NCBI RefSeq assembly: GCF_044704955.1
Contig: NC_091994.1
Location: forward strand, 87,110,001 to 87,174,000
Direction of reading: 5' to 3'
Origin: Pristiophorus japonicus
Taxonomy: Eukaryota
Length of the DNA stretch: 64,000 bases
Shown: piece after piece, positions 21,627 through 25,137 of the stretch
How the letters are laid out: the number at the start of each line of letters is the position of its first letter
How positions within the stretch are numbered: position 1 is the first letter of the stretch
Notes under the pieces: model-generated
Seen by the model: the letters and a program-made list of their open reading frames with translations, nothing else
The model's database searches: none
Told to the model about the DNA's origin: nothing
Program-made: the position numbers and the translations under genes

Positions 21627-22916
21627 TGTATTGAAAGTATAATAGCGATTGATCAGAAGCAACGATTTCCTCACTAAAATACATCTGGAGTAAAGCGCCA
21701 ATAGTCCAGAGTCTGAAAATATGTCTATTGAGATGTTCACTTCACCTGAGAAGAACTCCAGAGTCAATGCAAACTCCCCCGAAGTTAAGGCAGCCTTTTG
21801 AATGAAGCGACCTGCGATTTTAAAAATGACAGCCACAACGCTGGCGTTCGTTCAGAACAGTTCCACTTTTTCTGGGTGTTTTTTTGGGCGAGCGATATTG
21901 TGGGCGATATGTGTGCGAGGTTGTGAAAACGGTGGGCGATCTCCTCCGGGGTGTTAGTTTCGCCAAATATGCTCTTTACGACAAAAAAAAGTGGGAGGTA
22001 GTATTATTGAATCTCGGTGTTAATTCTGTGCGGAAAGTAATGCTGGGAGATATTATGAGCGTTGATTTTGCCCATTCTGCTGACTCCGCCCCCAAAAAGT
22101 GAGCGGGCGGTAATATTTTTTCCCGACGTTAAGCATATGGGGAAAGTAACGCTCGGTGATAAGTTTCCTAAAAATGCCCGTCAGTTTCCATTTTGTGCCA
22201 AAATGGGCGAAATATGGGCGTTATATGTAATTTCAGCGGTAAAGTGGGCGTTAAGCATGCAAAAAAAGTGAAGGTTCTAGCCCCATGTTTTCTTAAAAAA
22301 AACTTACTCTTCAGTTTTAATCCATCATCTGACTCCATTTAATTTCCTTCTTCAGCAACCAATTGATTAAAGTTAATTTGAACTCTATGGTAAGAGAAGT
22401 TTGTCCATAATTGTGAAAGATGCATGTATACAACATTATCAGTGATTCCACTGGCAATGTTATATTTTATCTATGGGTAAACCAGTTATGTGTGCATTAC
22501 AAAGTGCAGATGGGAGCTTTTAGTTTTAGTGAAGTTCCATATGTTTAATTGGCATTTCCCTCGTGTACTCATGTAAATGGCCTGGTCTTCCAACCTAAAC
22601 AGTGAGTGTCACCTGGGCCAGGAGGGAGAGTGGCATCAAAATTGAACTAAAACCTATTCTAACTCTGTATTCTACATTACAACAGGGACTAGCTGTAATT
22701 AATTGACTGTAAAGCACTTTGGGATGTCCGGTTGTCATGAAAGGCTCTGTATAAATGCAAGTCTTTCTTTGTATCCACACATGTGCACTTCCCCATGGAG
22801 GTGTTTAATCCTGATTTTGAAATATCTATTTCCTGCACTTATTTATCTGTCTGATGATACGTTATTAAGGTTTTCAATTGAACGTGTCATCAACAACAAA
22901 AAAATCAGAACTGGAG

Positions 22917-23274
22917 CTACCCTCCTCGTGGTTCTGCTCCTGGGCCTGGCTGAGGTGGCCATTAACAGGTCCAAGCAGTACATGATCAAGGAGGTTGCTC
23001 GATCCAACTATCTGCCTCTCTTCCGCAGCTACGTCCACGCCTGGGTATCCCTGGAGATGGAGCATGCGGTATCCGCCAGTAAGTTTGATGTTTTCTGCAA
23101 CCGGATGGACTGGAATGCCTAGTCGACATGGACAATATTATGTTTTAATTTGATAAGTTTCCTTTTGTTTTATCTATAATTTGGAGTTTATTATTTGTGT
23201 CCCTTTAAAAGAGGGGCACTTTTGTTCATTTGAGTGTTGATTGATGACTCAGTCATCATAATTGGCAATGAAAG
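22917..23274 (+). mobile_element. Tx1-clade (L1-Tx1) retrotransposon, 5'-truncated
   Basis: LLVVLLLGLAEVAINRSKQ..LPLFRSYVHAWVSLEMEHAVS resembles the Tx1 ORF2 C-terminus; perfect 16-bp TSD AAAATCAGAACTGGAG at 22901-22916 and 23275-23290. Confidence 0.85.
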
Positions 23275-23329: not shown

Positions 23330-24118
23330 TTAATCAGAAGGCTATGGGTTCAAGTCCCACTCCAGGACTTGAGCACACACATCTAGGCTGACACTCCCAG
23401 TGCAGTGCTGAGGAAGCGCTGCACTGTCAGAGATGCCGTCTTTTGAATGAATCTTTAAACCGAGGCCCCCTCTGCCCCCTCAGGTGGATGCAAAAAATTC
23501 CATGGTACTATTTCGAAGAAGAGCAGGGGAGTTCTCCCCAATGTCGAGGGCCAATATCTATCCCTCAATCAGCATAACAAAAACAGATTATCTGGTCATT
23601 ATCACCTTGCTGTTTTTGGGAGCTTGCTGCGCGCACATTGACTGCTGCGTTTCTCACATTACAACAGTGACTACACTCCAAAAAGTACTTCATTCGCTTC
23701 TCGGCCTTTTGGCTAAGATCATGCGTAACTGACCTGACAGGGGAGTAGCCACCATGACCTCCGGGTGGTTCTCCCTGGATCAGGAAGGTATATGCTTGCT
23801 TTTTTGGAAACAGAAGGTGGGTGGGGTGGCTTGACCCATCCACCTCCACGGAGGTGTGTGGGGGACCTGACCTATCCACCTCCATGGCACGAACCTGGTA
23901 TTGCAGTACTTCCAGGAACGGTGCAGTGGCTCTAGGCCTTTTGGCGAAGAGCATTGGCGCAGAGTGATCCTTGGCGTGTGCAAGGTGACCTCTGGCGTTT
24001 GTGATTTGACAAAGAGTTGGAACGATTGGCTACGAATTTCAAAAAAAAAATTCGCTGTAAAGCACTTTGAGGCATATGGTGGTCGTGAAAGGCGCTATAT
24101 AAATCCAAGTCTTTCTTT
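23330..24118 (+). mobile_element. Deu-type tRNA SINE (SacSINE1-like), interrupted by the snRNA-derived insertion
   Basis: GGTTCAAGTCCC B box and colinearity with the uninterrupted copy at 52958-53375; resumes at 24051 with GCTGTAAAGCACTTTG...GGCGCTATATAAAT. Confidence 0.85.
23692..24056 (+). mobile_element. Chimeric U2/U1 snRNA-derived retroposed element (SINEU-like) with poly(A) and TSD
   Basis: 23694-23721 equals U2 nt 2-29; 23728-23784 resembles U1 nt 3-57; 23799-23925 resembles the U2 Sm site, SL III (twice) and SL IV; 23929-23953 is a second U2 5' end; A10 at 24041-24050; ATTCGCT on both sides. Confidence 0.88.
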
Positions 24119-24608: not shown

Positions 24609-25137
24609 ATGGCGGCGGCGGAGTGCGAGCCGGAGTGGAGCGGCTTTTTCTCGGACTGCGTGCCACCACCCAATGCCGACCTCTCGTCGCAGGCAATGGC
24701 CGAGTTCGCGGTGCGGCACGCCGAGCAAGGCCGCAGGGTGGTGCTGGTGACCTCGGGCGGCACCAAAGTGCCGCTGGAGTCGCGGACCGTGCGCTTCCTG
24801 GACAACTTCAGCAGCGGCTGGCGCGGCGCCGTGTCGGCCGAGTATTTCCTGGACCTGGGCTACGCCGTGATCTTCCTGCACCGCCACCGCTCGCTCTACC
24901 CTTTCTCCCGGCGCTACTCCGGCCTCAACATGTTGGACGCGCTGCAGGCCGTGCTGGACGTCGGGACCACCCGCTGGCGGGTGGAAGCCGACCAGGCGGT
25001 GCTGCCCGACATCGTGCCAGTGCTGCAGCGCTACATGGCCGTGCGAGAAGCCGGCACGCTGCTGCCCGTGGAATTCAACACCTTGTCCGACTATCTGTAC
25101 CTACTGAGGGCGGCGGCTCAGGCGCTCAACTGCATCG
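24609..25137 (+). CDS. PPCS: Phosphopantothenate--cysteine ligase, exon 1
   Basis: VVLVTSGGTKVPLE..VRFLDNFSSG..YAVIFLHR; ATG at 24609 in GTTATGG context; donor gtacag, phase 1. Confidence 0.96.

Follow-up and report, generated by a model that had tools for sequence, protein, structure and literature searches.

The stretch of DNA analysed here (the window) covers 64,000 nucleotides of the genome of Pristiophorus japonicus and carries, between positions 23,692 and 24,056, an insertion composed of pieces of the small nuclear RNAs (snRNAs) U2 and U1, whose parts are collected in Table 1. No coding role is evident for it in the list of open reading frames. The insertion interrupts the tail of an older and abundant repeat (23330-23691 and 24057-24117), which we take to resemble a tRNA/Deu-type shark SINE, and more copies of the same family lie inside this older repeat elsewhere (loci L006, L020, L208, L228 and L248). 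Since the surrounding repeat is contiguous across the insertion site in 17 other copies, the two ATTCGCT motifs represent a target duplication, although five of their seven bases coincide with U2 nt 2-6, and the 5' edge of the element is therefore ambiguous. As for the neighbourhood, the first coding exon of PPCS starts at 24609, ~550 bp downstream and on the same strand (100% identical to the P. japonicus protein and 87-92% to those of other sharks), and the translation of 22890-23122 resembles the C-terminal end of a Tx1-type ORF2, as judged by eye against a frame in locus L223.

Table 1. Parts of the snRNA-derived insertion, in positions of the window.
Feature	Position	Strand	Remarks
Whole insertion	23692..24056	+	348 nt plus A tail, with target duplication
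Target duplication, 5' copy, 7 bp ATTCGCT	23692..23698	+	Read in the sequence; empty sites in other copies of the host repeat
Outer head = U2 nt 2-35	23694..23727	+	32/34 against host U2; two substitutions common to the family
Segment derived from U1 nt 3-52 plus short extension, one long hairpin	23728..23795	+	77% against host U1, E 3e-7
Sm-like site (T6GG)	23800..23807	+	Aligned to the U2 Sm site
Two tandem hairpins, from U2 SL III by duplication	23812..23886	+	Folds; variants with a single hairpin exist
U2 SL IV and 3' end	23887..23926	+	32/34 against host U2 153-186
Inner, older U2 5' head	23931..23953	+	20/23 against host U2 7-29; reaches U2 nt 38 in family C1
Family-specific tail	23954..24040	+	Expanded from the ~45-nt family C tail; without LINE similarity; without AATAAA
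A10 tail	24041..24050	+	Read in the sequence
Target duplication, 3' copy	24050..24056	+	First A common to A tail and duplication

The host genome's own U2 and U1 genes, located with Rfam models, served as the reference for the parts of the element. A preliminary description had recognised in it a U2 nt 2-35 head with two mismatches, a U1 segment behind this head, a U2-like Sm site, two hairpins like stem-loop (SL) III, the U2 SL IV and 3' end, a second and more diverged U2 5' end, a unique tail, A10 and the duplicated ATTCGCT, and all of these parts were recovered against the host references or in the sequence itself. The U1-derived stretch 23728-23779 is 77% identical to host U1 3-52 over 53 columns, with 16/18 matches at U1 3-20, and 23801-23850 aligns with host U2 100-147 at 72% (E 0.03). 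The recourse to Rfam models that the same description had suggested was successful in part, as the U2 model matches the element at 53 bits (gathering 46, E 5e-9) and the U1 model gives no match in it at E<=1; a match to a prion pseudoknot model (E 0.048, below gathering) was discarded as chance. The U1-derived hairpin, both SL III-like hairpins and SL IV are all predicted to fold, the first at -32.4 kcal/mol and the tandem hairpins at -26.6 and -22.8 kcal/mol, versus -14.8 for the host SL III, and the whole element is more stable than all 100 shuffles (z = -4.4). The base before the T run of the Sm-like site is C in the subfamily of the window, and A in U2 and in the subfamilies B and D discussed below. 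In the loop of SL IV (23893-23926), two bases are unlike both host U2 types and nearer to the Rfam consensus.

The element belongs to a young family of non-coding retroposons, made from host U2 and U1, that has more than 2,400 copies dispersed in the genome. A 20-mer from its tail has 2,438 exact matches in the genome, against 0 for a control, which is a lower bound on the copy number because other tail variants exist. A DNA search yielded 1,392 candidates, and the 40 that were scored all reach 98.6-100% and lie on many contigs in unrelated flanks. Thus, the snRNA-headed SINE family that had been postulated for a shark is borne out, with numerous colinear copies differing in their flanks and bearing poly(A) and target duplications, and not with the single copy that would have spoken against it. 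Of the first 30 of the 2,438 tail matches, 13 belong to copies truncated at the 5' end and the other 17 to copies close to full length, and a strict automatic match detects target duplications in 77 of 119 copies (one further copy without an A tail being left out), a few of which are likely due to chance or to tandem neighbours. The window's type has a mean pairwise identity of 99.3%, in a sample biased to the best matches, and is 88% identical (as represented by the window's element) to subfamily B. Heads of at least six types and tails of five occur among 156 near-full copies, partly shuffled between subfamilies. Substitutions in the head are inherited and its U2/U1 junction is fixed, so that the head is not added anew at each insertion. 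SL IV is unchanged in 12/12 aligned copies, and 0 of 82 predicted pairs have a double (compensatory) change, which says little because the copies are too close.

A likely ancestor of the element is family C, of which one subtype has 201 exact tails. Its members start with a near-complete main-array U2, from which a short internal stretch is missing and which carries along a few 3' flanking bases; U2 8-38 comes next, followed by a ~45-nt tail and poly(A). Their inner head ends at U2 nt 38, that is, at the insertion site of the retrotransposon Keno. In the order that parsimony suggests, a short sequence would have landed at the Keno site, a full U2 would have come to stand in front of the inner head by deletion between array units or by a template switch, U2 36 to ~97 would then have been replaced by the 5' part of U1, and the duplication of SL III and the growth of the tail would complete the series. 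The outer head, the Sm site, SL III and SL IV likely stem from one full-length U2 whose middle was later replaced by U1. This amends the earlier idea of nested heads that record repeated captures of snRNA 5' ends: the inner head is indeed the older one, but the outer one likely derives from a full-length U2 and not from the capture of a 5' end alone. Subfamily D (9 copies) has a head that again extends as far as U2 nt 38, which the re-entry of a truncated copy into a U2 gene would lead one to expect.

The main U2 array, with units of ~770 bp, contains a 5.7-kb LINE that has a zinc-knuckle ORF1, an ORF2 with endonuclease (AP-type) and reverse transcriptase (RT), a U2-like head of its own and an A tail adjoining U2 nt 39. 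The published Keno target in U2 is the same junction (PMC6136364, PMC4640811). The array LINE shares with Keno the two ORFs, the AP-type endonuclease with RT and the U2-specific site, and has Tx1-named relatives; no protein match to it is named Keno, the assignment being made by domain set and target. On C19, a U2 array (loci L160-L169 and L111; ~69.62-69.73 Mb) is crowded with near-identical intact LINE copies, some of them tandem and inserted into the LINE's own U2-like head, and 15 ORF2 frames of >1,100 aa lie within 105 kb of it. On C9 (loci L106-L110 and L113), there is another type of U2 gene, which differs in its upstream region and has units of ~18-43 kb, each followed by LINE remnants and U2-derived pieces.

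What goes beyond the preliminary description is a sister subfamily in the U2 genes at the site of this intact Tx1/Keno-type LINE. In the same arrays, subfamily B occupies exactly the site of the intact LINE, in the order upstream region, head, body, A tract of varying length, U2 39-191 and 3' flank. The terminal 22 nt of this upstream region have 267 matches in the U2 stretches retrieved, where one array may be represented by more than one short contig, and these matches are followed by intact U2 in 230 cases, B in 18, the LINE in 12 and others in 7, the latter being three LINE variants, one truncated copy of the window's lineage lying inside the LINE's U2-like head and behind the U2 upstream region (locus L188), and three matches cut by the end of a stretch. 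LINE or SINE insertions are therefore found in at least 30 of the 267 U2 units examined. Candidate source copies behind the upstream region of an snRNA gene are thus present for subfamily B, but not for the window's full-length head type, which was found behind the U2 upstream region in 0/9, 0/267 and 0/15 cases in three samples, in an assembled array that has a gap and several pieces of which are short contigs. That region is called here a putative promoter by its position only: in the main U2 array, it has no octamer within 600 bp, nor does it clearly match the proximal element of U1, whereas an octamer is present near -205 in the U1 genes.

Regarding the dispersed copies, subfamily B has 200 exact tails genome-wide, and the first 30 of these all belong to dispersed copies, which have no upstream region and are 0-4 bases away from whichever array type is nearer. 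Among 25 near-full dispersed B copies, a single one has an exact counterpart in the assembled arrays, and for this reason the array copies could be daughters and not sources. The 5' ends of dispersed copies stop at U2 +1, and none of 26 dispersed copies with an intact U2 1-12, from five samples, matches more than 3 upstream bases. Over 99% of the window-type copies lie away from the U2 site. Still, 15 of the 2,438 window-type tails precede that site, 13 of them directly, against an expectation of 0.0002 (~833 sites); all 15 lie in family C copies and not in true genes, and some of these junctions could come from a composite source, yet their partners, subfamilies and duplications differ. One older copy of the window's lineage adjoins a true U2 remainder, without upstream region (locus L196).

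The flanks of dispersed copies resemble the U2 site weakly (TCTG in 5/119, background 0.8%), and SINE and LINE copies stand in tandem at common sites in loci L223, L243 and L292. A second preferred site is found antisense in a Gypsy-type pol gene, with 69 matches (loci L203:1470-1850 and L266-L295); the first 30 of these insertions include 29 of this SINE group and none of the LINE directly, and the LINE is present there in tandem with the SINE in L292 and L223. An RNA-guided targeting of this hot spot was rejected, given that 35% of random 33-mers resemble the tail at least as well as do the 33 nt upstream. A further recurrent site, in another repeat, is used by the SINE and by a Tx1 copy (loci L005, L018, L084, L089 and L243). 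In one case, a Tx1 relative lies in U1-like sequence near nt 40 (locus L299:1500-1600), and an insertion of this kind is a possible route for the capture of U1. Elements related to the array LINE have 1,826 dispersed tails, and 30 sampled ones are 71-94% identical to it, apart from one 35-nt match; these relatives are other candidate helpers for most copies. The tail of the element does not appear to derive from a helper LINE, as nothing better than E 0.4 was obtained against the LINE and 30 relatives, and the SINE lacks the 3' tail in common with its partner LINE that the stringent definition of a SINE-LINE pair would demand.

How, then, are these elements transcribed and mobilised? The best explanation, which we hold to be probable, is that the source copies sit at the Keno site of U2 genes, are read from the promoter of these genes and are then copied by the proteins of Tx1/Keno-type LINEs. 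Transcription would begin at U2 +1, cross the genomic A tract and end at the U2 3' box, reverse transcription would be primed on the A tract, and a head-to-head joining at insertion would replace the first 38 nt of the gene by the head of the element, generating a new source copy; the element itself would descend from family C, and an Sm ring loaded on its RNA would stall the RT. This explanation is supported by the position of B behind the U2 upstream region, by the junction in common with an intact LINE, by the window-type tails at that junction, by the 5' ends at U2 +1, by the inherited head, by the SINE and LINE copies in tandem and by the truncations discussed below. It is weakened by the lack of a full-length window-type source in the arrays, by the exact array counterpart that only one of the 25 dispersed B copies has, by the missing octamer, by the position of most copies away from the U2 site, by the dispersed Tx1 relatives as other helpers, by the hot spot without a direct LINE insertion, by the tail unlike that of the LINE and by the want of compensatory changes. 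Runs of 4 and 6 T inside the element would speak against transcription by Pol III, the same oligo-T argument having been made for SINEU, the snRNA-headed SINEs of crocodilians (PMC4494074). A variant of this explanation differs from it in one step: the borrowed promoter is kept, but most dispersed copies would be made by other, non-specific L1/Tx1 families, and the U2 LINE would only seed the arrays. The many dispersed Tx1 relatives, the weak likeness of dispersed targets to the U2 site and the SINE-rich hot spot are in line with this variant, but the U2-type LINE also occurs off target itself, where it shares one duplication with a SINE copy in tandem (L223 and L292), and we regard the variant as unlikely, though worth keeping in view.

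Other explanations dispense with the U2 genes as sources. According to the model put forward by Kojima for SINEU, the RT switches template to free U1 or U2 RNA, the sources are dispersed and use flanking promoters, and the copies in arrays would be targeted daughters spread by array turnover. This fits the window's subfamily, for which there is no array source, the fact that most dispersed B copies differ from array copies, the U1 piece and family C's full U2, both of which are compatible with template switches, and the shuffling of heads and tails between subfamilies. However, transcripts driven from flanks should leave common 5' extensions, and none is evident in the flanks compared by eye, nor does any of the 26 copies extend into the U2 upstream region; moreover, template switching by itself does not predict that heads should terminate at the Keno site or slightly short of it (nt 35-38), as they do. 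The model is given a small chance. Even less probable is a source in the form of a variant snRNA gene maintained by the host for a cellular role, with the dispersed copies as processed pseudogenes. The strong folding (z of -4.4 and -6.6), the preference of variable columns for unpaired positions (26/58 paired versus 165/252; p 0.004, with rows that are not independent) and the constancy of SL IV would suit such a gene, but selection for mobility accounts for structure equally well, the array copies have the anatomy of insertions (an A tract of variable length and then the rest of U2), the region that pairs with the branch point and SL II are lost, the subfamilies replace one another quickly and, among 24 sequencing runs listed, only one organism has at least half of the element's words; small shares in two other organisms are not counted as evidence, and no RNA run is listed as containing the element. 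Finally, chimeric snRNAs have been described (PMC4494074), but a pseudogene formed once as a chimera, or a collection of chimeras formed independently, is practically refuted by thousands of colinear copies that agree exactly in their junctions and fall into subfamilies.

The 5'-truncated copies give an additional hint about the RNA. Two samples not selected by length, comprising 60 copies, include 18 that are truncated, and 14 of these begin within 1-22 nt on the 3' side of the Sm-like site, where 7% would be expected (p 3e-13); only 1 of the 18 begins at the similar second hairpin, which the enzyme meets first. An Sm ring loaded on the element RNA could stall the RT at this place. Alternatively, the RT may stall at the stronger first hairpin, or the truncations may result from G-rich microhomology. 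The window's subfamily has C in place of A before the U run, and covariation is absent. In family C, truncations are not enriched (5/36 in a pooled count, in a set swamped by 27 interrupted copies). It can tentatively be proposed, with doubts prevailing, that the RNA is a parasitic snRNA, which homes into U2 genes, captures their Pol II promoter with every hit becoming a new source gene, enters snRNP assembly and leaves the truncations as a footprint of the Sm ring. Alu/FAM is a comparable case of a deleted small-RNA derivative with a templated A tail, and the element proposed here would likewise exploit the protein partners of its parent; unlike it, Alu carries its Pol III promoter within itself and employs L1.

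Judging from its sequence features, the element is a SINEU-like (SINEU-class) retroposon, likely of independent origin. It has a U1/U2 head, is non-coding and below 500 bp, ends in poly(A), is multiplied from master copies, and has target-site duplications and targets in common with a Tx1 element, by which its mobilisation may be presumed. The families SINEU-1 to SINEU-3 (PMC4494074) have the same U1/U2 heads, size and poly(A), subfamilies with swapped or added heads, tandem insertions, internal oligo-T, no tail in common with a LINE and targets in common with Tx1, and SINEU-3, an internally deleted U2 with a short unique tail, is much like family C. SINEU was found only in crocodilians, with Mariner-N4 as its preferred target (PMC4494074). 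The shark element is different in its order U2-U1-U2-U2-tail, in its shark snRNAs and in its relatives at the Keno site in U2 genes. The independent origin that the preliminary description had advanced is favoured because the element is built from host-type U1 and U2. The reports on Keno (Tx1 clade) and Utopia (PMC4640811, PMC6136364) describe an identical 3' junction in U2, and the array LINE has the domain set and target of Keno; those elements are autonomous, whereas the shark element encodes nothing and is mostly dispersed. The R2 and R2/R1 SIDEs of Drosophila (PMC3414825) are likewise a case of non-autonomous riders of a site-specific LINE that reside in a multicopy RNA gene and rely on its transcription. 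These SIDEs, however, are deleted LINEs in rDNA with a 5' end made by a ribozyme, whereas the shark element is made of snRNA, would obtain its 5' end from the transcription start site and is spread genome-wide. In the literature searched, which did not include subscription journals or Repbase Reports, there is no snRNA-headed SINE from cartilaginous fishes, an existing entry being possible, and no SINE placed at the Keno site.

A family of the SINEU kind is thus present outside crocodilians, young and apparently evolved separately, in a genome that also holds its likely ancestor and an intact helper. The transcription of SINEU was left as an open question in its founding paper, where flanking Mariner-N4 promoters were suggested and not U2 genes (PMC4494074). 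The candidate source copies behind an snRNA upstream region would account for the transcription of such elements, and the genomic evidence points to the U2 genes as a route in addition to the one proposed there. If true, the same route would explain the SINEU of crocodilians, whose Tx1 helpers cluster with Keno, and there would be a repeatable path from a spliceosomal RNA to a mobile element.
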